From IMG/VR virus record IMGVR_UViG_3300015371_000009, positions 23,983 through 87,982 of that record: a stretch of 64,000 bases of DNA. One strand, 5' to 3'. The notes beneath the pieces were generated by a model. It was not told the DNA's origin. It was given only the letters and a program-made list of their open reading frames with translations, and did not search any database. Below are positions 1,311 to 63,217 of the stretch, in pieces. This DNA comes from a virus. The position numbers were made by a program, and so were the translations under genes. Positions within the stretch are counted from its first letter, which is position 1, and every line of letters begins with the position of its first letter.

Positions 1311-1471
1311 GCGAGCTGGCCAAGGCGATCAAAAAGATTCGCGCCGACCTGGTCTGGCGCGGACCGACCGGCCGTCAGGCCGGCGTGATCGTGCTCGATC
1401 GCGCCATGGCGGAGGTGGTGCTGGAAGCGCTGGAGAAAAAGCAAAAGCAACCGGAGCCGGTCAAAGCATGA
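1307..1471 (+). CDS. Small hypothetical protein (54 aa, not in the ORF track)
   Basis: MSELAKAIKKIRADLVW...; ATGA overlaps with both neighbours. Confidence 0.55.
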   Translation: MSELAKAIKKIRADLVWRGPTGRQAGVIVLDRAMAEVVLEALEKKQKQPEPVKA

Positions 1472-2493
1472 ATGCGGCCACGCTGTTTTCCGGAATCGGT
1501 GCGCCAGAGGTTGCCATGCCGCATTGGCGCTGGCTGTGGCATGCCGAAGTCGAGCAATTTCCGAACGCGGTGCTGTGCTTGCGGCATCCGCAATCGATCA
1601 ACCTCGGAGATGTCAACGCCCATGACTTCACGCAAAGGGCCGAAGCCGTCGGACGGCCAGACATCATTGTTTTCGGAAGCCCCTGCCAGTCATTCAGCAT
1701 CGCCGGAGAACGTCTTGGCCTGGATGATCCGCGCGGTAACTTGGCGCTCATCGCCCTGGGAATTGTTGACCGACTTAAACCCGCTTGGTTCGCCTTTGAG
1801 AATGTGCCCGGACTCCTGTCATCAGGAGATGGACGGGACTTTGGTGCCTTTGTCCGGACGGTGGATGAACTCGGGTATTCTGGCGCATGGGCAAGCCTGG
1901 ACGCGCAATGGACCGGAGTGGCGCAGCGGCGCGAGCGTCTGTTTTTTGTCGGACACCTTGGAGACTGGCGACGTGTCGCCGCGGTACTTTTTGAGCCGGA
2001 AAGCTTGTGCGGGCATCATCCGCCGCGCCGCCAGCCGGGGCAAGGAGCTGCCGCGGCAATTGCAGGCGGCGCTGCAGGCGGGAGCGAATGCGACGGCGTG
2101 ACCGCCGACGTGGCCGACCCGATCAGCGCCAACGAAGCCAAGACCTACACCCACGAAGGCACCAACAATTTCCGCATGCACAATTTGGTGTTCGGCGGCA
2201 ACAACACCGTCGGGCCGATTGACGTGGCGACGGCTTGTCGCGCCAAGGGCGGCAGCGGCCATTTCGATTTCGAAAGCGAGAGCTTTGTCGCCACGGTCGG
2301 CACCGGCATGGTGCGGCGGCTGACGCCGCGCGAGTGCGAGCGGCTGCAGGGCTTCCCCGACGATTACACGCTGGTGAATTATCGCGGCCGGCCGGTTTCC
2401 GACGGCCCGCGCTACAAGGCGCTGGGCAATTCGATGGCGGTGCCGGTGGTGCGCTGGATACTCAGCCGGATCGAAGCGGTGGAGCAATTATGA
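1468..2493 (+). CDS. DNA (cytosine-5) methyltransferase
   Basis: Motifs I (LFSGIG), IV (GSPCQSFS), VI (ENVPG), VIII (QRRERLFFVG), IX (RRLTPRECERLQGFP) and X (LGNSM). Confidence 0.93.
   Translation: MNAATLFSGIGAPEVAMPHWRWLWHAEVEQFPNAVLCLRHPQSINLGDVNAHDFTQRAEAVGRPDIIVFGSPCQSFSIAGERLGLDDPRGNLALIALGIVDRLKPAWFAFENVPGLLSSGDGRDFGAFVRTVDELGYSGAWASLDAQWTGVAQRRERLFFVGHLGDWRRVAAVLFEPESLCGHHPPRRQPGQGAAAAIAGGAAGGSECDGVTADVADPISANEAKTYTHEGTNNFRMHNLVFGGNNTVGPIDVATACRAKGGSGHFDFESESFVATVGTGMVRRLTPRECERLQGFPDDYTLVNYRGRPVSDGPRYKALGNSMAVPVVRWILSRIEAVEQL
1610..2101 (+). CDS. Possible overlapping +1-frame polypeptide inside the methyltransferase gene
   Basis: Open +1 frame ending in the protein-like LSDTLETGDVSPRYFLSRKACAGIIRRAASRGKELPRQLQAAL; start uncertain. 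Confidence 0.45.
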   Translation: MSTPMTSRKGPKPSDGQTSLFSEAPASHSASPENVLAWMIRAVTWRSSPWELLTDLNPLGSPLRMCPDSCHQEMDGTLVPLSGRWMNSGILAHGQAWTRNGPEWRSGASVCFLSDTLETGDVSPRYFLSRKACAGIIRRAASRGKELPRQLQAALQAGANATA

Positions 2494-2510
2494 AACGCTC
2501 TGCCGCAGCA

Positions 2511-2756
2511 TCAGCTCCCGGTGTGCGCCGCGCGGCGCAGCACCTCATCGATCATTTCCTCGGTCGCCATGTCGGCGTCGGATATGTCGATGCCAAGCTC
2601 GCGGGCGAAGATGTGAAAGGCTTCCTCCGCCGCGGCTTGCCGATCGGAGCCCCAGTCATCGCCGCCGTCGCGCTCGCGATTGCCGGGCGGAAAGATCGGC
2701 TGGGGGCGCGCCGCCTCGGCGAGCGCGTGCAGCTTTTTGCGCTGTTCGTCGGTCAT
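2511..2756 (-). CDS. Hypothetical protein (minus-strand island 1)
   Basis: Operon-like spacing and RBS. Confidence 0.65.
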   Translation of the reverse strand: MTDEQRKKLHALAEAARPQPIFPPGNRERDGGDDWGSDRQAAAEEAFHIFARELGIDISDADMATEEMIDEVLRRAAHTGS

Positions 2757-2759
2757 GGT

Positions 2760-3149
2760 TCAGCTCCCGGCGCGCGCCGCGCGGTCGACAACGGCCTCGG
2801 TGTTGTAGGGATATTTCTTGATGAACGCGGGAATGTCGTGCTCGGCCTCGCCGGCAAGCCTGATGATGCCCTTGAGGTCCTTGGCCTCGGTGCAAGCAAC
2901 CTCGCAGAATTCGGCATCGTAGACGCCGATCATGTACGGCTCATCGAGCCGCTCGCCCAGCTCGACGCCGTCAAGAACGGTGATCCAAACACAATAGCCG
3001 TTGATGACGCGCTCCCAGGCAAGGCAGCCGCCGCCGGTGTGGCGCACTTCAAAGCCGGCGCGCGTCATGCGCTTGCCGACCGTGCTGCGGTAGGCCGCGG
3101 CCTCGGTCCGCTCCAGCCAATTGAAAAACCGATCGGTGTCGCTTGTCAT
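2760..3149 (-). CDS. Hypothetical protein (island 1)
   Basis: Operon spacing; HTGGGC motif. Confidence 0.7.
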   Translation of the reverse strand: MTSDTDRFFNWLERTEAAAYRSTVGKRMTRAGFEVRHTGGGCLAWERVINGYCVWITVLDGVELGERLDEPYMIGVYDAEFCEVACTEAKDLKGIIRLAGEAEHDIPAFIKKYPYNTEAVVDRAARAGS

Positions 3150-3152
3150 GAT

Positions 3153-3596
3153 TCAGCGCTCCACGATGTCCCAGCGCCGGCAGAAGTCCCGCAGCCACGC
3201 GTGCTGCGCCTCGGTCAGGCTTTCGTCGAACAGATGTTCGTCGGCGGAGCCCAAGTTGAGGCCCTGCGATTCGTTCCATTGCTGATATTCGTCGATCAGC
3301 GAATCCAGCGCCTTATCGTCGGCGTAGCCGGCCGACATGGCGAAATCAAAAAGCTCGCGCTCCAGTTTTTCCAGGTCATCGCTGATCCATTCGTCGCGGC
3401 CGATCATCAGATACCACTGGCCGCGGGCGCGGGCGTTGTTCGGCCAATCCGGCCGCACCTCTTCGATGTAGAGCGCGCCGAGATAGAGCAAGCCGCTGGC
3501 CGGCGATTTGTCCTCTTCCCATCGTGCATCATCGAGCGCTTTGCCCAGGTCGGCGCATGGCCGGCGGGTTGCCTGAAACTGTTCGAACGTCATCAT
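3153..3596 (-). CDS. Hypothetical protein (island 1)
   Basis: Strong RBS GAGGAGA directly downstream of the promoter at 3616-3645. Confidence 0.75.
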   Translation of the reverse strand: MMTFEQFQATRRPCADLGKALDDARWEEDKSPASGLLYLGALYIEEVRPDWPNNARARGQWYLMIGRDEWISDDLEKLERELFDFAMSAGYADDKALDSLIDEYQQWNESQGLNLGSADEHLFDESLTEAQHAWLRDFCRRWDIVER

Positions 3597-3615
3597 CGAT
3601 TTCTCCTCTCCGCTC

Positions 3616-3645
3616 TATATAGGTCATTCTGGCCGCTGCGTCAAG
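3616..3645 (-). promoter_or_regulatory. Sigma70-type promoter with palindromic box (copy 1)
   Basis: Minus strand reads CTTGAC-N5-GGCCAGAATGACC-TATATA. Confidence 0.8.
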
Positions 3646-3678
3646 CTGCCGAAATCGCCGGTATTTCAGGGGGTTGCC

Positions 3679-4194
3679 ATGTATGACGGGCCGACCCCGA
3701 TCGTGGTCACTCTGACCTATGCGCAAATCAGCATGGCCGCGCACGTGGCGGTGATGCGCTTGACCAGCAACATGAAAGCCGGCCGCAAGCCGCGCAACGG
3801 CGCCAGCCGGATATGGGACATGGACGTCAACGGCGCCTGCGGCGAGCTGGCGACGGCGCTCTGGCTCAATCTGTTCTGGTGCGGCGCGCTGAACAATTTC
3901 GAGGCGCGCGATGTCGGTGGCCTGATCGACGTGCGGGCCGGCTCGAAAGCCGACTACCGGCTGATCCTGCACGACGATGATCCGGATGACGTGCCGTTCG
4001 TCAACGCCTGGGTCGAGCTGCCGATCGTCAAGCTGGCCGGCTGGGCGTTTGCGCATGAAGGCAAGCGTCGCGAGTTCTGGCAGGACCCGCTGGGTTTTCG
4101 GCCGGCGTATTTCATGCCGAACAAGTTGCTCCACCCAATGGCAGAGCTGCGCCAGTGGGTGGAGCGCGTGGGGGTGATGGAGGTCAGCACATGA
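3679..4194 (+). CDS. Hypothetical phage protein, possibly PD-(D/E)XK-like
   Basis: GELA...DVGGLIDVR pattern; function uncertain. Confidence 0.55.
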   Translation: MYDGPTPIVVTLTYAQISMAAHVAVMRLTSNMKAGRKPRNGASRIWDMDVNGACGELATALWLNLFWCGALNNFEARDVGGLIDVRAGSKADYRLILHDDDPDDVPFVNAWVELPIVKLAGWAFAHEGKRREFWQDPLGFRPAYFMPNKLLHPMAELRQWVERVGVMEVST

Positions 4195-5705
4195 GCGGCT
4201 TTCTTGCCTCGATCGTGCAGCGTTGGCACCGCCTGCTATTGATATTCCGTCGCCGGCCGCTGCCGGCGCCGCCACCGCCGGCCGTGGTTGAGGCGCCACC
4301 GCCGCCGCCACTGCCACCGGCAACGCCGTTGCCGCCGGCCGACGCGGATTTGCGGGATGATGACCAGGTGGTGCTGCGCTACGACGATGTGCCGCAAAAA
4401 GTGCGGCGCAAGCCGGATGTCTGGTTGCCGGGCCGTGCGCCGAAAAAGCGTGAGCGCAAACCGCGCGATCCCAATGTGCCGGCAGCGCCGCCACGCCCGC
4501 GCCGGGCCAAACAACAAGTTGCCACGGCTGGCGCCGGTGCGGTGTGGGATATGAGCCGGGCTGGCGTCGAGGAGGCCGGCACGTTCTATTTCCGCGGCGC
4601 GCTGCTCAACGATCTGCCGCGGTATTTCCGGTCGTTGCGCCGGCTGCGCGGCGCCGATCCGAATTCTTATCATCTGTGCTCGACCATCGGCATGAGCCTG
4701 ATGCCGGTGCGGATGATCGGTTTCATCGGCGAGCTGCCGGTATGGTGGCATGATGCCAGCAAGCGACCGAATTTCGGCGCGGCGTCGTTTGCCGATCACG
4801 ACCTGGATGAGGGCAACACGCTGCGGCTGACCTACTTCCAGCACGTGGCGATTCCGTCGGCGGACGTCGAGCCGACCAGCGGTCAGGTCTATCGCGTCAC
4901 ATGCTACTTCGACGATTTCAATACAGAGCAACATCCGACCAGGCGGCGCGCGCCGAAATGGCTGCGCAAGCACGGCGTTTGCCTTTGCTATTACGTCAGC
5001 GTTGACGTTGCCAGCAAGGTCAGGGTGCTGAGGCAGCTGCAGCTGCGCTATCAGCATGTCAGCTATCGCAGCGGCCAGCATTCGCCCAGCAACCGGCCCA
5101 GCAGCTCGAACGGCAGCCGCACCCGCAAAATGCGGTTCACCCACTCGATTCCGATGAAGCTATGGGACTATCCGGAATTCATGCGTGACTGGTATCGCGA
5201 GCGGTTTGACGATCGCAACGACCCGCGCACCAAGGACGATGAGCAGATGGCGCGGCACTTCGCGCGCACATTCATTTGCATCACCAGCTTTGCCAACGCC
5301 AACGACACCGGTGTGCGCGTGGCCATCACCGCCCGCGATGGCCTGTGCGCCAGCTTTGCCTTGGACATGAAACGGTCGGCGTATTTTTTCAAGGACCGCG
5401 ACGTGGTGCTGACCGCGCAAGGCAAGCGGGCACGGGTGTTTCACGTGGTGCGGCCGCACATCCGGCATCTGCAGGATGGCCGCGAGCTGCCGCTGAAAAT
5501 GCACTTCCGGGGTTTGCGCAAATTCCCGTGGGGCGAATACCAAGTGCACATCACCGTGCCTGGTTTGCATCACTCGCCGCTGATCGAGCTGATGCCGGAG
5601 CTGTACGACTACAAGACCGCGCTCGGCCTCGGCCACGATGAGAAAGACCTGATGACCACCAAGGCCGCCGCCAAGGAAATCCGCGAATATCTGGAGCAGT
5701 CGTAG
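4191..5705 (+). CDS. Large hypothetical phage protein
   Basis: Long ORF with a Pro-rich N-terminus and C-terminal HVVRPHIR / HFRG motifs. Confidence 0.7.
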   Translation: MSGFLASIVQRWHRLLLIFRRRPLPAPPPPAVVEAPPPPPLPPATPLPPADADLRDDDQVVLRYDDVPQKVRRKPDVWLPGRAPKKRERKPRDPNVPAAPPRPRRAKQQVATAGAGAVWDMSRAGVEEAGTFYFRGALLNDLPRYFRSLRRLRGADPNSYHLCSTIGMSLMPVRMIGFIGELPVWWHDASKRPNFGAASFADHDLDEGNTLRLTYFQHVAIPSADVEPTSGQVYRVTCYFDDFNTEQHPTRRRAPKWLRKHGVCLCYYVSVDVASKVRVLRQLQLRYQHVSYRSGQHSPSNRPSSSNGSRTRKMRFTHSIPMKLWDYPEFMRDWYRERFDDRNDPRTKDDEQMARHFARTFICITSFANANDTGVRVAITARDGLCASFALDMKRSAYFFKDRDVVLTAQGKRARVFHVVRPHIRHLQDGRELPLKMHFRGLRKFPWGEYQVHITVPGLHHSPLIELMPELYDYKTALGLGHDEKDLMTTKAAAKEIREYLEQS

Positions 5706-5714
5706 GTTAGGCTG

Positions 5715-6161
5715 ATGGCAAAAAACAATATTGCAGACCGAATGTTGGATTGGGTTGAACCAGCTTCAAACCTGATCTGGAAGCAATTGAAGATTAAAAA
5801 TATCGAGGCGCTGTGCAGTCAGTGTGATCGGGAGTTTGACGAAAACGATCTGGCGGCAGCAAGTGTGGTTGCAACGTCGCGCGCCAATTTCAGTGTTGTG
5901 GCGGATAAGATCAGCTCTCGGCGATCCTTCGCTGTGGGGAAGGAGATTGAGACTAGCATTGCGAAGATTCAGAAAAAGCTTGCACGAGAGATTGGAAACG
6001 ACAAAGCAGAGCGCACGATGGCCGCTGCGATCGGTTTTGTGAACTGCAGGATGCTGGTCAACATCATTGTCATGCGTTCGGTCACGAAAGAAATCGAACG
6101 AATTATCGAGGAGGAGGACGAAAAGGATCGCCGTAAGAAGATCGGGGCTAGGCAACCATGA
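5715..6161 (+). CDS. Hypothetical protein, lower GC than its neighbours
   Basis: Open frame; its stop overlaps the next start (ATGA). Confidence 0.55.
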   Translation: MAKNNIADRMLDWVEPASNLIWKQLKIKNIEALCSQCDREFDENDLAAASVVATSRANFSVVADKISSRRSFAVGKEIETSIAKIQKKLAREIGNDKAERTMAAAIGFVNCRMLVNIIVMRSVTKEIERIIEEEDEKDRRKKIGARQP

Positions 6162-6724
6162 CCGACATTCTGGCCCTCGACATTGCGACGGTGACCGGCT
6201 GGGCCCGCGGCCGCGTCGGCGAGGAGCCGCGTTGCGGTTCGATTCGATTCTCGACCAAGGGTGCGTCACAGCTGGCGATCTGCGGCCGCGCACTCGACTG
6301 GATGATTCAGACGCTGAAGCCGCCGCTGCCCGACGTGGTGGCGATCGAGGGCTTGCTGCCGCCGCACACCATCAAGAAGCAATCGAATGTCGATCATGAC
6401 TTGCTGGCGCAGTTGCACGGAATTGTGCTCGGCGTCTGCTTCATGCGCGGCATCTACAAAGTGAATCGGCACGCGCTGCCCAGCATCCGCGCGCACTTCA
6501 TTAACGGTCCGTGCGCCAAGGGTCAGGCCAAGCGCATGGTGATCGAGCGGTGTCGTTGGCTCGGCTGGCTGGAGGCAGCCGACGATGACGCTGCCGATGC
6601 GTTGGCCGTCTGGAGTTATCAGGCGGCGCTGATCGACCCCGAACAGACGATCCGGATTTCCCCATTATTCCGCAAAAATTTTTTGACGAAAAAGCTTGGA
6701 TTGGCTGCAGACACAAAGGCTTAG
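6158..6724 (+). CDS. RuvC-like Holliday junction resolvase
   Basis: ILALDIATVTGWA, VAIE and DDAADALAV acidic catalytic motifs. Confidence 0.8.
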   Translation: MTDILALDIATVTGWARGRVGEEPRCGSIRFSTKGASQLAICGRALDWMIQTLKPPLPDVVAIEGLLPPHTIKKQSNVDHDLLAQLHGIVLGVCFMRGIYKVNRHALPSIRAHFINGPCAKGQAKRMVIERCRWLGWLEAADDDAADALAVWSYQAALIDPEQTIRISPLFRKNFLTKKLGLAADTKA

Positions 6725-21153: not shown

Positions 21154-21189
21154 TATATAGGCCAATTTGGCATACCGGTCAAGATGGCC
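21154..21189 (-). promoter_or_regulatory. Promoter with palindromic boxes (copy 2)
   Basis: CTTGAC-N5-TGCCAAATTGGCC-TATATA; second box GGTCAAGATGGCC (21177-21189) lies over the -35. Confidence 0.8.
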
Positions 21190-22284: not shown

Positions 22285-22348
22285 TATATAGGCCAAACGG
22301 GCAGATAGGTCAATATGGCCGGTGTAATAAATTCAGGCCAGAATGGCC
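22285..22348 (-). promoter_or_regulatory. Promoter (copy 3) with three palindromic boxes in a divergent region
   Basis: ATTGAC-N5-box-TATATA; perfect boxes at 22308-22320 and 22336-22348. Confidence 0.8.
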
Positions 22349-23841: not shown

Positions 23842-25003
23842 CGCGGAGCTGCACGAATCGATCCTTGAGGCCGGCGACGCCGACGCGGCGACCGCGGTCG
23901 GCCAGGCGGTGGCGGCAAGATTGCTCGGGCCGGAGCGCGCCGCGCGATTGTTCGGCAAGCAGCCGGCGAAGGCCAAGGCGTGGAGCCAAAAAGAAACCAA
24001 CGCCCACACCGACTGGATGAACGAATGCGTTCCCAAGCTGATGGGTTTTGGCAAGGAGCAGGATGTTGCGATTGCCGCTTGCTTGAACATGTGGCGCGAC
24101 GCCTGGGAGGAAGCACACCCCGACGGCGCTCCCGATCCAGGACCGTCGCCGCCGCAGGCGGATGAGAAAACCCACGCCATCGCCCAGCAGCTGCTCAAGG
24201 CCTACGACGAGTCAGAACATCCGCGCGACGATCACGGCCGCTGGACCGATGCCGGCGGCGGTGGTGGAGCTGAGGCGGCGCCCGCCGTCGGCATGAGCCA
24301 CGAAAAGATTCAGGCGGCGATCAAAAACGTCGCCAAGTATCACGACTTTGATCCTGGCCGCATCGAAATCAGTGATGGCGAGCACAACTTCGAACTTGGC
24401 GGGACCGCGCGCAGCGCGGCTGGTGTTGCCTATACCAGCAAGGTTACGTCATATGGCACGCAGCGGCCGGGCGACACGCTGATCACGATTTACAGTCGAC
24501 ACGTCACGCCGGAAACCGTCGAAGGCGTGATTTCGCATGAGATTGAGCACATCAAATTTCAGCACGCGTTGAAGCGCCACAAGCTCGAATGGAATGCGGT
24601 CAATGCGCTGGCTGTGCCGACTGATGACCTGATGTACGCCGATGGCCGGCTGAAGCCGCCATACGATGAAAAATATCCGGCCTATCAGGCGATCGAGACT
24701 GCTTTTTATATGCCCAGCACTGAGCAATTTGCTGCGGCCGATGGCGTGTCGAATTACAGCTACGATTGGTGGCTCGAGCAGCGCGCCAACAACGCGACCA
24801 AAGTCCAGACGGCTCACGAAACGCTCGCGGAGATGGCGCGGATCAAATACGAGAGCGGCAAATTTCCGGATCACATGGGTGAACGGATTCTCTCCTGGCG
24901 CGGCGAGGACAACAAACCATCCCAGGCTGAGATTGCCGCCAACGCCAAACTCTGGCGCGACCTTTACCGCGCGGTCGACAAGGTTTGGAAAATGCCGCCA
25001 TGA
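23780..25003 (+). CDS. Putative virion effector 2: Cys domain, PRD tag and zincin metallopeptidase
   Basis: KAYDESEHPRDDHGRWTDAGGGG tag; HEIEH at 24536-24550; VSNYS...HETLAE. Confidence 0.7.
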   Translation: MPTSAKPSKASELFQANPRRDAELHESILEAGDADAATAVGQAVAARLLGPERAARLFGKQPAKAKAWSQKETNAHTDWMNECVPKLMGFGKEQDVAIAACLNMWRDAWEEAHPDGAPDPGPSPPQADEKTHAIAQQLLKAYDESEHPRDDHGRWTDAGGGGGAEAAPAVGMSHEKIQAAIKNVAKYHDFDPGRIEISDGEHNFELGGTARSAAGVAYTSKVTSYGTQRPGDTLITIYSRHVTPETVEGVISHEIEHIKFQHALKRHKLEWNAVNALAVPTDDLMYADGRLKPPYDEKYPAYQAIETAFYMPSTEQFAAADGVSNYSYDWWLEQRANNATKVQTAHETLAEMARIKYESGKFPDHMGERILSWRGEDNKPSQAEIAANAKLWRDLYRAVDKVWKMPP

Positions 25004-26631
25004 TCGAAACCACCACGGTCAACGGCCGGCCGGCGCACGTCGCCTATATCGATGACAAGCATCAGCCGGTCGAGCCGGCGAAGGCGACGCTGATCAAGGT
25101 GCTGTTCGCTGACGAACAAGGTGGCATCGTTTACCTGGTTGGCGACGGCGCCCGTCCAGAAAAGGCGAATGGCAAGGCCGGTCATGTTGGCCTATATAAC
25201 AAGGCTGCGTGGGATGAAAACGAGCACCCGCGCGCGCCAGCCGGTTCGCCGGATGGCGGGCAATTCGTAGGAGGTGGCGGTGCCGGTGGAGGACAAGGAA
25301 CTGGAAGCCAAGCTTCGAAGCCTGACGCCGCGGCAACAGGAGCTGGTGCGCGAGGTCATGCAGGACCACCCGACTCTTACGTTCGAGGAAGCCCTGGAGA
25401 TGCTGAAAAGCGCGGGCATGTAGTCGCGGTCTACACGCCGTCGGCGGCGCAGCTCGCCGCCGCCAAGCAAGCCCAACGCACCCCGCAGACATTCCACGCG
25501 CTGGCGCCCGCAGGCGCCGACAAGTTCTACGCCGCCATCACCGAAGCCAAAGCCGCCGACACCAAATACGGCTCATCGGTGCACGTCTACGACGCCGAAG
25601 CCTACAAGGGCATGAGCCTGTTCCTGACGGCCGACGGCAAGTCGGGATTTGCGCTCAAAGGCAACGACATCGTGTCGTGCTTCAAGCACCCGGCCTCGAC
25701 TGCCGAAGGCTTTGCCGACGAAGCGCTCGGACTGGCGACGCAGCTCGGCGGCCGCACCCTCGACGCCTTCGATACCGTGCTGCCGCAGCTCTACAGCAAG
25801 AGCGGTTTCCGCGCGGTGGCGCGCATCCCGTGGAACGACGAACACAAGCCCGACGGCTGGAATTACGACGCCTACAAGAAATTCAAGGATGGCCGGCCAG
25901 ACGTCGTGTTCATGATCTACGACCCGGCCAACGCCAAGCGCTACAAGCCGGGCGATGGTCGCACTTACGGCAGCTACGATGACGCGTCACGCGCCCAGCA
26001 TCGCGCGCTTGATGACGTGGCGGTCAACACCGCGGTCACCTCGACCAAAGAACGCTGGTACTCGGCATCGCCGTTCAAGGGCAACCTTGCCGGCGCGATG
26101 GCCGCGGCGCCGGTGGCGCAAGCGCAGCTGGGCCCGGTCGGTGAGGCGATCGCCAAAAAGTACGGCGTGGTGTTCAAAAATCCCGGCGTCAAAAAGGACG
26201 TCGCGCGCATCCAGCAAAAGGTCGCCGATCGCGGCGGCGTCGAGCGCGTCACCGATCTAGCGCGCGCCACGTTCCTGATCCGGACACCGGAGCAAGCCGA
26301 AGCGATCGCCACCGAACTCGGCAAGCATTTCGAGGTGGCGGTCGAGCCGTGGCGCATCACCGACGTCAACTACGCCGATCGCGCAATCCAGGTCAGATTC
26401 AAGGGCGGGCTGATTGGTGAGGTGCTGGTAATGGACGCCGACATGGCGCACGCCAAGTCACCGGATGGCGGCGGCGGCCATGACCTCTACGTCGAGCAGC
26501 GCAAGCTTGATCCGGTGAAAGATGCAAAGCGCTGGCAGGAGCTGCACAAGCAGCAGCAAGCGCTCTACGGCCACGTGCTGGACAATTATTCGCGGCCCTG
26601 GAAAGCCGCCTTGGGCATCGAAGGCAGCTGA
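25000..26631 (+). CDS. Putative virion effector 3: HPR tag, GNAT-like domain and RelA/SpoT-like synthetase
   Basis: KAAWDENEHPRAPAGSPDGGQF tag; GGRTLDAFDTVLPQLYSKSGF; VKK..RI..K...DLARA...NYAD...GEV...AK...GHDLY. Confidence 0.7.
   Translation: MIETTTVNGRPAHVAYIDDKHQPVEPAKATLIKVLFADEQGGIVYLVGDGARPEKANGKAGHVGLYNKAAWDENEHPRAPAGSPDGGQFVGGGGAGGGQGTGSQASKPDAAATGAGARGHAGPPDSYVRGSPGDAEKRGHVVAVYTPSAAQLAAAKQAQRTPQTFHALAPAGADKFYAAITEAKAADTKYGSSVHVYDAEAYKGMSLFLTADGKSGFALKGNDIVSCFKHPASTAEGFADEALGLATQLGGRTLDAFDTVLPQLYSKSGFRAVARIPWNDEHKPDGWNYDAYKKFKDGRPDVVFMIYDPANAKRYKPGDGRTYGSYDDASRAQHRALDDVAVNTAVTSTKERWYSASPFKGNLAGAMAAAPVAQAQLGPVGEAIAKKYGVVFKNPGVKKDVARIQQKVADRGGVERVTDLARATFLIRTPEQAEAIATELGKHFEVAVEPWRITDVNYADRAIQVRFKGGLIGEVLVMDADMAHAKSPDGGGGHDLYVEQRKLDPVKDAKRWQELHKQQQALYGHVLDNYSRPWKAALGIEGS
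25169..25198 (+). promoter_or_regulatory. Intragenic copy of the promoter/box motif
   Basis: GGTCATGTTGGCC-TATATA at 25180-25198; the -35 is degenerate. Confidence 0.55.
25280..25423 (+). CDS. Nested +1-frame 47-aa helical protein (candidate antitoxin)
   Basis: AGGAGG-N5-GTG; MPVEDKELEAKLRSLTPRQQELVREVMQDHPTLTFEEALEMLKSAGM. Confidence 0.65.
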   Translation: MPVEDKELEAKLRSLTPRQQELVREVMQDHPTLTFEEALEMLKSAGM

Positions 26632-61895: not shown

Positions 61896-61940
61896 TATAT
61901 AGGTCAAGCTGACCGGATTGTCAAGTAGGCCGTTTTGGCC
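61896..61940 (-). promoter_or_regulatory. Promoter with palindromic box (copy 5)
   Basis: CTTGAC-N5-GGTCAGCTTGACC-TATATA; imperfect second box at 61928-61940. Confidence 0.8.
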
Positions 61941-63088: not shown

Positions 63089-63217
63089 TATATAGGCCAA
63101 TCTGGCCGCTACGTCAAGAGCCAAAAACCCCTGTATTTTGATGGGCTTGACGGGTCCACTTGACAGCGGTCATTCTGGCATGGTTGTTCCATCTGGCATA
63201 AGTCGGCCATTTCGGCC
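63089..63217. promoter_or_regulatory. Promoter copy 6 (minus strand) and divergent plus-strand control region
   Basis: CTTGAC-N5-GGCCAGATTGGCC-TATATA at 63089-63118; plus-strand CTTGAC at 63159 with imperfect boxes at 63168 and 63205. Confidence 0.78.

Follow-up and report, generated by a model that had tools for sequence, protein, structure and literature searches.

A conserved gene nested in the linker of a phage effector gene, ahead of its GNAT-like domain

Two reading frames in the gene for effector 3

The DNA considered here, termed the window throughout, is a stretch of 64,000 nucleotides from a virus (IMG/VR record IMGVR_UViG_3300015371_000009, positions 23,983 to 87,982), and all coordinates refer to it unless a relative is named. 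Its plus strand carries at 25000–26631 a gene of 543 codons, effector 3 (product P0001, 543 aa), which is the last of three consecutive genes that have in common a short tag and then a Gly-rich linker, and whose ATG overlaps the stop codon of the preceding gene (ATGA, 25000–25003). Wholly within it, on the same strand and in the +1 frame, lies a second open reading frame (ORF) at 25274–25423 that encodes 49, 47 or 45 aa when read from the GTG at 25274, 25280 or 25286, respectively, and that ends with the TAG at 25421–25423. Comparison with relatives shows purifying selection on the frame of this nested gene (product P0002), a separate start, and a tie across many phyla to a GNAT-like domain of the effector.

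A Shine–Dalgarno (SD) sequence, AGGAGGT (25269–25275, plus strand), is separated by 4 nt from GTG 25280 and by 10 nt from GTG 25286, and the inner frame is closed just upstream by a TAG at 25268–25270. The AGGAGG (25269–25274) and the +1-frame ORF (25280–25423) that a first-pass annotation of the window had picked out are both present, and its description of the outer frame as a G/A/S/P linker with A/T-ending codons also holds: residues 90–122 of P0001 are rich in these four amino acids, and GC content at codon positions 1/2/3 over 25274–25423 is 0.82/0.74/0.32 in the outer frame and 0.755/0.327/0.816, a normal coding pattern, in the inner one. Because a Gly/Ala/Pro-rich outer frame would by itself raise the inner values at positions 1 and 3, the outer third-position value (GC3) is the informative figure. 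It recovers to 0.826 downstream of the overlap, and among all 90-nt segments of the three effector genes it falls below 0.5 only at 25225–25360. In effectors 1 and 2 the Gly linkers stay at 0.73–0.83, so the drop in effector 3 is not due to Gly-richness alone.

An AlphaFold2 model of P0001 (19 homologues as input; mean predicted local distance difference test score, pLDDT, 78) leaves residues 1–123 disordered, a region that comprises a leader, the tag (W-D-x3-HPR...GGQF) and the G/A/S/P linker. Folded structure begins at about residue 124 with the GNAT-like domain (residues ~124–340), and a second domain follows from about residue 350 (Tas1-like, RelA/SpoT-type, residues ~353–543). The nested gene had been described as sitting directly before the GNAT-like domain, which is where it was found, its end lying inside the first strand–helix–strand of the domain (strand 127–130, helix 134–138, strand 141–147; block pLDDT 73 to 95). 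To judge from the aligned copies, ~54 nt within 25366–25423 (plus strand) are constrained in both frames: the inner frame there reads HPTLTFEEALEMLKSAGM-stop, and the outer frame reads PPDSYVRGSPGDAEKRGHV, the first strand and helix of the GNAT-like domain. The core of the nested peptide as a whole can be written L..L.P....L(V/I)..(V/L)...HP.LT..EAL.ML..AG(M)-stop.

The domain labels hold at the level of fold, as the first-pass annotation had them, given the Foldseek matches of the model. The central domain resembles GNAT acetyltransferases (2zw4_A, E 8.6e-4; 3dr8_A, 2.3e-3; 1ghe_B, 3.0e-3), and a PDB sequence profile search returned no match for it. The C-terminal domain resembles the (p)ppApp synthetase Tas1 of a type VI secretion system (6ox6_A, E 5.3e-8, 24% identity) as well as small alarmone synthetases, and Tas1 was also recovered by the PDB sequence profile (E 4.4e-7).

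Public data already include the same 49-aa ORF as a gene call, in which the first residue is given as M. A public contig of 3,549 bp with identical sequence carries this call together with a 350-aa call from the GTG at 25579 (window 25579–26631), which indicates that one gene caller chose the inner ORF and so split the outer gene. An independent contig across 24900–25545 shows 0 differences to the window, although run X1, from which it derives, is possibly the sample that the window itself came from. In contigs from four DNA runs, 25169–25423 shows no indel or other variant, the ORF being spanned by a single contig of run X1. A metagenome contig from the same run has a diverged stretch of equal length (78 nt) within the Tas1-like domain, at window 26352–26431, which suggests a co-occurring variant of this phage.

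Conservation and selection of the inner frame

Relatives were gathered by the GNAT-like domain: 80 viral loci, which with the window make 81 sources, and 79 more loci from bacterial genomes, including Bradyrhizobium, Nocardia, Rhodococcus, Microbacterium and Klebsiella and metagenome-assembled genomes labelled Chloroflexia, Terriglobales, Acidobacteriota, cyanobacteria, Brachyspira and others. A tblastn search with the 49-residue peptide, a check that had been proposed for co-occurrence with the domain, gave a match directly upstream of it in 46 of the 81 sources, and all 46 were in the +1 frame. Many of these sources are near-duplicates, and 28 distinct peptides were aligned. The conserved outer-frame stretch in these homologues is the other-frame reading of inner HP.LT..EAL.ML..AGM-stop. 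The 33 viral loci without a match have +1-frame ORFs with helical-looking tails and a stop shortly before the domain (e.g. ...GMSDAEAEEYLRTL-stop and ...KGITKEAARAELRHWV-stop), and the peptide profile matches 12 of the 79 bacterial-genome loci, again always in +1.

When viral and bacterial loci were pooled (120 distinct upstream regions, domain identity at least 40%), the outer frame was open over 300 nt in 116, a +1 ORF of at least 40 codons ended within 250 nt in 115, and the two occurred together in 112. Since ORFs of at least 40 codons are common in GC-rich DNA, the case rests on conservation and not on openness. None of 14 distant homologues (<40% identity; Streptomyces, Saccharimonas and others) has both features. 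The link between peptide and domain is strict: an iterated profile run against 21,747 six-frame ORFs (1.06 Mb) produced 66 matches, of which 65 lay directly upstream of the domain in +1 and the remaining one is a separate copy in locus L007. Each such locus has a single match, and effectors 1 and 2 of the window have none. A search from the side of the peptide found three viral loci, on the contigs of the already counted L021, L016 and L018, and two new metagenome loci (L084 and L085); the domain lies downstream in all five, and the +1 relation was computed for the two new ones. The nested +1-frame gene of the first-pass annotation is thereby confirmed as a conserved, separately started gene that accompanies the GNAT-like domain.

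Variability differs among codon positions in a way that indicates selection on the inner frame. When the 28 distinct loci were aligned by codon (31-column core), nucleotide entropy at inner positions 1/2/3 was 1.34/1.04/1.48 bits, and in 27 actinobacterial loci it was 0.82/0.70/1.02. The inner second position is the outer third position, and it was the least variable site class in both sets, which is the opposite of what would be expected if the outer protein alone were under selection. Initiation signals are distributed accordingly: over the 45 codons at which a start would yield a peptide of 35–80 residues, the inner frame held 52 ATG codons vs 11 and 7 in the other frames, an enrichment of 5–7 fold, with at least one ATG in 27 of the 28 loci. 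Sequences of the GGAGG or AAGGA type stand ∼6–9 nt before an ATG in many of the 27 actinobacterial copies, often soon after an inner-frame stop (examples are L088, L091, L096, L097, L100, L103, L109 and L113), and in several loci the nested ATG arises inside the codons of the outer-frame tag (R-D-G read as ..G ATG ..). Taken together, these comparisons make it very probable that the nested gene is real and translated.

The distribution of the peptide is wide. Against 1.84 billion proteins represented at 50% identity, the profile of the 28 peptides matched 568 clusters at E ≤ 1e-3 and 12 at ≤ 1e-10, most of the 568 being proteins of 45–130 aa with the match at the C-terminus, and peptide and layout extend over Proteobacteria, Actinobacteria, Acidobacteria, Chloroflexi, Cyanobacteria and others. 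A separate search for larger proteins that contain the peptide gave eight matches, none of them fused in frame to the GNAT-like domain. The outer protein has likewise been retained: full-length homologues of P0001 in public data are 41–56% identical and 550–610 aa long, and their outer frame conserves the tag plus F-S-R-E-S-P-S-D-A-E-R-S-R-D-V-V-A-V-Y. Homologues of the GNAT-like domain itself sit mid-protein in very different polyvalent proteins, where they are fused to ADP-ribosyltransferase, Zeta-toxin and other domains and, in Microbacterium phages, to a protein annotated as 'minor capsid protein'.

Three further arrangements were observed among the relatives. A second family of nested peptides, M..EPMTQERREAFWRQYGWSPDLPE..R..IE..W.D..IEEAEALGF-stop, occupies the same slot in L088–L127 (Nocardia, Rhodococcus, Microbacterium); nearly all copies place the stop 92 or 95 nt ahead of the domain, the profile of this family gave 33 matches upstream in +1, 1 in another frame and 3 elsewhere, and the first-family profile showed no link to it at E 1e-3. 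The peptide module is present as a tandem double copy in P0135, P0136 and the Terriglobales locus L093 (2531–2884). The viral contig L007 has three consecutive tagged effector genes (1340–6262), with a peptide gene of 65 codons (1479–1676, starting with ATG) at the head of the array, which overlaps the first effector ORF at its 5′ end in +1; hhalign of alignment A1 against that first effector found no domain match. The outer-frame motif of the domain is retained in L007 despite the absence of an inner ORF from the linker.

The internal promoter-like element and its surroundings

Upstream of the nested start, by 75–87 nt, lies a promoter-like element (25169–25198, plus strand) composed of a −35 hexamer readable as ATGGCA or TGGCAA (25169–25175), an operator-like site GGTCATGTTGGCC (25180–25192) and a −10 hexamer TATATA (25193–25198). 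The operator and TATATA had been noted before at 25180–25198, and they are there, although the operator is not the perfect one it was taken for: it is a near-palindrome and a member of a variable family, GGYCA-N3-TGRCC. The family is strongly over-represented in the window, with nine sites matching GGCCTATATA at ≤ 1 mismatch vs 0.31 expected, and three matching the 19-mer at ≤ 3 mismatches vs 0.01 expected.

Six copies on the minus strand have the form cTTGAC, a 17-nt spacer containing the near-palindrome GGCCA-N3-TGGCC, and TATATA, and they stand 19–29 nt (61 nt at 61896) before the ATG of a small reverse-oriented gene that mostly has a GGAG-type ribosome-binding site. These copies, at 3616–3625 (147-codon gene), 21154–21163 (55 codons), 22285–22294 (71 codons), 28991–29000 (37+103 codons), 61896–61905 (214 codons) and 63089–63098 (68 codons), appear to form a single regulon of accessory cassettes that share an operator. 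Two of the products resemble membrane peptides. The copy at 28991–29000 heads a cassette that includes a gene for a weakly HD_4-like hydrolase; the product of 28108–28680 (minus strand) matches HD_4 and HD at E 7e-4 and 1.7e-3, under the Pfam cutoffs, and is a candidate alarmone hydrolase; its gene, under the operator-bearing promoter, lies on the strand opposite to and 1.5 kb from the Tas1-like domain (26056–26628, plus strand).

Three relatives keep the internal element at the homologous spot, with the −35 at 15–16 nt: L001 (TTGAAA..GGTCAAAACGGCC TATATA), L005 (TTGCAA..GGCCAAAGTGGCC TATATA) and L086 from Bradyrhizobium sp. SRL28 (TTGCGC..GGACAAAATGACC TATATA). The outer frame over the element reads G-Q-(N/S)-(G/D)-L-Y-(K/R) in these relatives, with the rare codons CAA, CTA, TAT and AGA, and GHVGLYN in the window, where five of the seven codons end in A or T. 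Set against an outer-gene GC3 of ∼0.8 in the window, such A/T-ending codons point to selection on the DNA motif. A sigma-70 consensus scan did not list the 25193 site, because its rule demands a T at the last −10 position, which TATATA does not have. The earlier suggestion of a promoter belonging to the nested gene was sound in so far as the operator and −10 are those of the phage's own promoter family and the element is kept in three relatives, and less so as to its −35, which is weak (TGGCAA/ATGGCA) in comparison with the cTTGAC of the six clear copies. From these sequence features the chances that the internal promoter is active appear about even.

The tag that precedes the linker, WDENEHPRAPAGSPDGGQF (25210–25266, plus strand), is conserved in alignment A1 and has variant forms in effector 2 (nt 24203) and effector 1. 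Its general form, aromatic-D-x3-(H/E/Q)PR-x2-5-G-x-(W/F) followed by poly-Gly, precedes the enzyme part of each effector in the window (sites at 24203 and 25210, and at residues 25–48 of effector 1), as well as in L007 and L084. No Pfam family was detected in any of the three tagged proteins of the window. The three effector genes lie upstream of a fused prohead protease–capsid gene (29120–31378; Peptidase_S78 + Phage_capsid in one ORF of 752 codons).

Candidate roles of the nested protein and known counterparts

There is reason to think that this is a dual-coding region in which the outer frame specifies the linker and the start of a domain while the inner frame specifies a separately translated, three-helix partner protein, a reading to which a probability of about 0.5 may be assigned. 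The outer frame would supply the linker, which is flexible, together with the initial strand and helix of the GNAT-like domain of a phage effector; this effector is encoded just upstream of the protease–capsid gene, and the head probably carries it. From the +1 frame would come a separate protein of 45–49 residues, made from its own start (AGGAGGT and GTG) on the late mRNA, and in this phage probably also from a short transcript off the internal sigma-70-type promoter, whose operator is the same as that of the reverse-oriented accessory cassettes. A model of the peptide consists of three helices (5–16, 19–31 and 37–46) and no strand, with a pLDDT of 77.

A dedicated partner of the domain appears to be the best fit to the evidence on the nested peptide, given its strict link to one domain family, its overlap with the N-terminus of that domain and its absence from distant stand-alone homologues; the occasional tandem duplication, the relocation within the cluster in L007 and a promoter of the accessory-cassette type lead in the same direction. 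An inhibitor or immunity protein would be the likeliest form of such a partner, favored by the type of promoter, by analogy to the antitoxins encoded upstream of GNAT toxins, and by the immunity genes of polymorphic toxins, although this more specific role is put forward tentatively, its chances being somewhat short of even. An inhibitor would silence the acetyltransferase in the lysogen or in the cell that makes it, and might also weaken effector copies brought in by related phages. With the partner overprinted on the linker of the domain, the two would also be inseparable when domains shuffle between effector genes.

Several observations weigh against the partner reading or against parts of it. 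The main weakness for a separate start is that many, perhaps most, proteobacterial-type copies are without a clear SD before the ATG, and the openness of the inner frame is matched to a considerable extent in the third-frame control, in which 58 of the 120 pooled loci have an ORF of at least 40 codons. No RNA run is among the sequencing runs listed for this stretch, and the −35 of the internal promoter is weak, as described above. In L007 the linker of the effector-3 homologue (2995–5367) has no nested ORF and the peptide gene is 1.7 kb away, so overlap is not obligatory. As to a GNAT toxin, the domain of P0001 has a GNAT fold in the structural model and its toxicity is putative; Pfam gave no family for P0001 at E ≤ 0.1, neither a GNAT family nor MuF.

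The family searches with the peptide weigh in the same direction. Pfam and PHROGs returned only sub-threshold matches for P0002 and eight relatives, among which the ribbon-helix-helix (RHH)/DUF1778 Pfam signature of GNAT-toxin antitoxins was absent, and the peptide matched no antitoxin or immunity family in Pfam, PHROGs or PDB profile searches. The Pfam match to UBA_N4BP1_C (E 0.0017) is under the family cutoff, and the best VIA structural match (1wj7, a UBA domain; Z 5.0, root-mean-square deviation 3.3 over 48 residues) is not significant. Foldseek against the PDB gave nothing at E ≤ 1e-3, the PDB sequence profile nothing below E 0.1, and the ESM Atlas no usable match. Without an RHH/DUF1778 signature or a significant structural match, the term antidote, which the first-pass annotation had used, describes a reasonable hypothesis and not a result.

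The main rival to an inhibitor is a chaperone or loading adaptor: the nested gene would be real, and its product would serve in folding or assembly, in loading of the head, or as a small regulator. The comparative evidence for such a role is identical to that for an inhibitor, and a modeled three-helix, UBA-like shape would suit many protein–protein contacts. The peptide gene of L007, which stands alone at the head of its array after a 385-codon ORF, fits a general helper, and the tandem copies in P0135, P0136 and L093, the mid-protein position of the domain in very different polyvalent proteins, and the putative nature of its toxicity may be read in the same way. However, the peptide follows one particular domain and not effectors generally, as effectors 1 and 2 have none, and a promoter of the accessory-cassette type suits protection better than it does an assembly function confined to the late phase. 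A non-inhibitory role seems rather unlikely.

A programmed +1 frameshift in the Gly-rich stretch, with no separate start, would send some ribosomes into the inner frame and yield, beside the complete effector, a truncated product of leader, tag and three-helix tail; it is improbable. SD-like sequences stimulate +1 shifting in prfB, and it might be expected under such a mechanism that the inner frame would always be +1 to the outer one, that an SD-like AGGAGG would occur within the coding sequence, and that many proteobacterial-type copies would be without a clear SD, all of which is seen. However, a frameshift needs none of the ATG codons in which the inner frame is enriched, actinobacterial copies have an SD and an ATG soon after the inner-frame stop, no conserved slippery motif was seen in the aligned copies, and the copy in L007 is a free-standing ORF with its own ATG. 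In the window itself, the TAG at 25268–25270 would limit the shift site to a handful of Gly codons, among which there is neither a stop nor a slow codon. Two related candidates were rejected: a frameshift introduced by assembly, since 116 of 120 relatives have an unbroken outer frame, and a −1 shift from the inner to the outer frame, since the conserved structured motif of the outer frame lies inside the overlap and no slippery site was apparent by eye.

A last possibility, that the inner frame is untranslated and only looks conserved because the outer protein, or the GC-rich DNA or RNA itself, is constrained, is most improbable. In its favor are the frequency of long open frames in the third-frame control and the conserved, structured piece of outer protein encoded by the 3′ third of the overlap. 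Against it, variability is lowest at outer third codon positions; the outer linker before residue ~124 is of variable length and low complexity while the inner peptide shows helix-like substitutions across phyla; ATG and SD sequences are enriched; and nearly all actinobacterial copies have the stop at a conserved distance from the domain.

The partner reading, if extended, would have head-carried and polyvalent effectors bear hidden, domain-specific antidote microgenes on their linkers, with enzyme and inhibitor unsplittable and, in temperate phages like the present one, with the microgene also under a lysogenic or early accessory promoter; as a general rule this is doubtful. Were it true, the lysogen would be shielded both from leaky expression and from the injected effectors of related superinfecting phages. 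If the peptide is the inhibitor of the domain, it would represent a new packaging of a toxin-like module with its antidote, and would explain how dangerous enzyme domains can be shuffled safely. Other consequences concern the gene itself. Gene callers and curated libraries miss it, as the outer ORF either swallows it or is wrongly split, and it is a clear natural example of dual coding that has lasted long, with structure encoded in both frames over ~54 nt. As a module of phage effectors the GNAT-like domain is widespread, and a dedicated partner would offer a way to study it.

Nested genes on the same strand are known in phages, for instance Rz1 inside Rz of lambda and E inside D of phiX174. 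As in those pairs, a larger gene contains, on its own strand and in the +1 frame, the whole of a small gene that has a start of its own; both frames are under selection, and the products are expected to act together. Unlike in Rz1/Rz, the host gene here is that of a multi-domain, probably head-carried effector and not a lysis gene, and the nested gene covers a disordered linker and the first strand of an enzyme domain with which it moves between unrelated architectures. Several peptide sequence families also occupy the one slot here, and the peptide has no lipobox or membrane segment.

The type II toxin–antitoxin pairs with GNAT toxins (TacA–TacT, AtaR–AtaT and KacA–KacT) have a small antitoxin gene upstream of the toxin gene, and the present arrangement is similar in that a small gene directly precedes a GNAT-fold domain and is inherited together with it. 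It differs in that the peptide has no RHH/DUF1778 match and is predicted to be all-helical, that the GNAT-like domain is part of a larger effector and has no Pfam GNAT match at E ≤ 0.1, and that the small gene is fully nested and does not merely overlap by a few bases; the toxicity of the domain and its neutralization are putative here.

Polyvalent and MuF-type effectors are encoded by genes of the phage head region and carry shuffled enzyme domains that include GNAT, RelA/SpoT, ADP-ribosyltransferase and zincin, and immunity proteins are expected for their toxic domains, according to the available portions of two papers (Iyer et al. 2017, PMC5512222; Jamet et al. 2017, PMC5576092). P0001 resembles the MuF-type polymorphic toxins in its variable C-terminal domain, which is Tas1-like here and is ADP-ribosyltransferase, Zeta-toxin or another domain in homologues, and differs from them in having a short tag and a Gly linker instead of a MuF (Phage_Mu_F) domain. 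To our knowledge, the immunity genes of polyvalent and MuF-type systems lie downstream and are not overprinted upstream. The available portions of PMC5512222 and PMC5576092 contain neither the term frameshift nor a mention of overlapping genes, and nested genes in such effectors are not described in the abstracts and matched passages of the literature searched, including PMC12226406 (the domain tables of Iyer et al. might name the GNAT family).

The C-terminal domain of P0001 is like Tas1 (PDB 6ox6) by both fold and sequence profile. Delivery would be by the phage particle and not by a type VI secretion system, and the likeness concerns the downstream domain, not the nested gene. Relative to the papers searched, in the portions available, the overprinting architecture is thus a familiar one, while its placement, its breadth and the probable logic of enzyme and partner are new.

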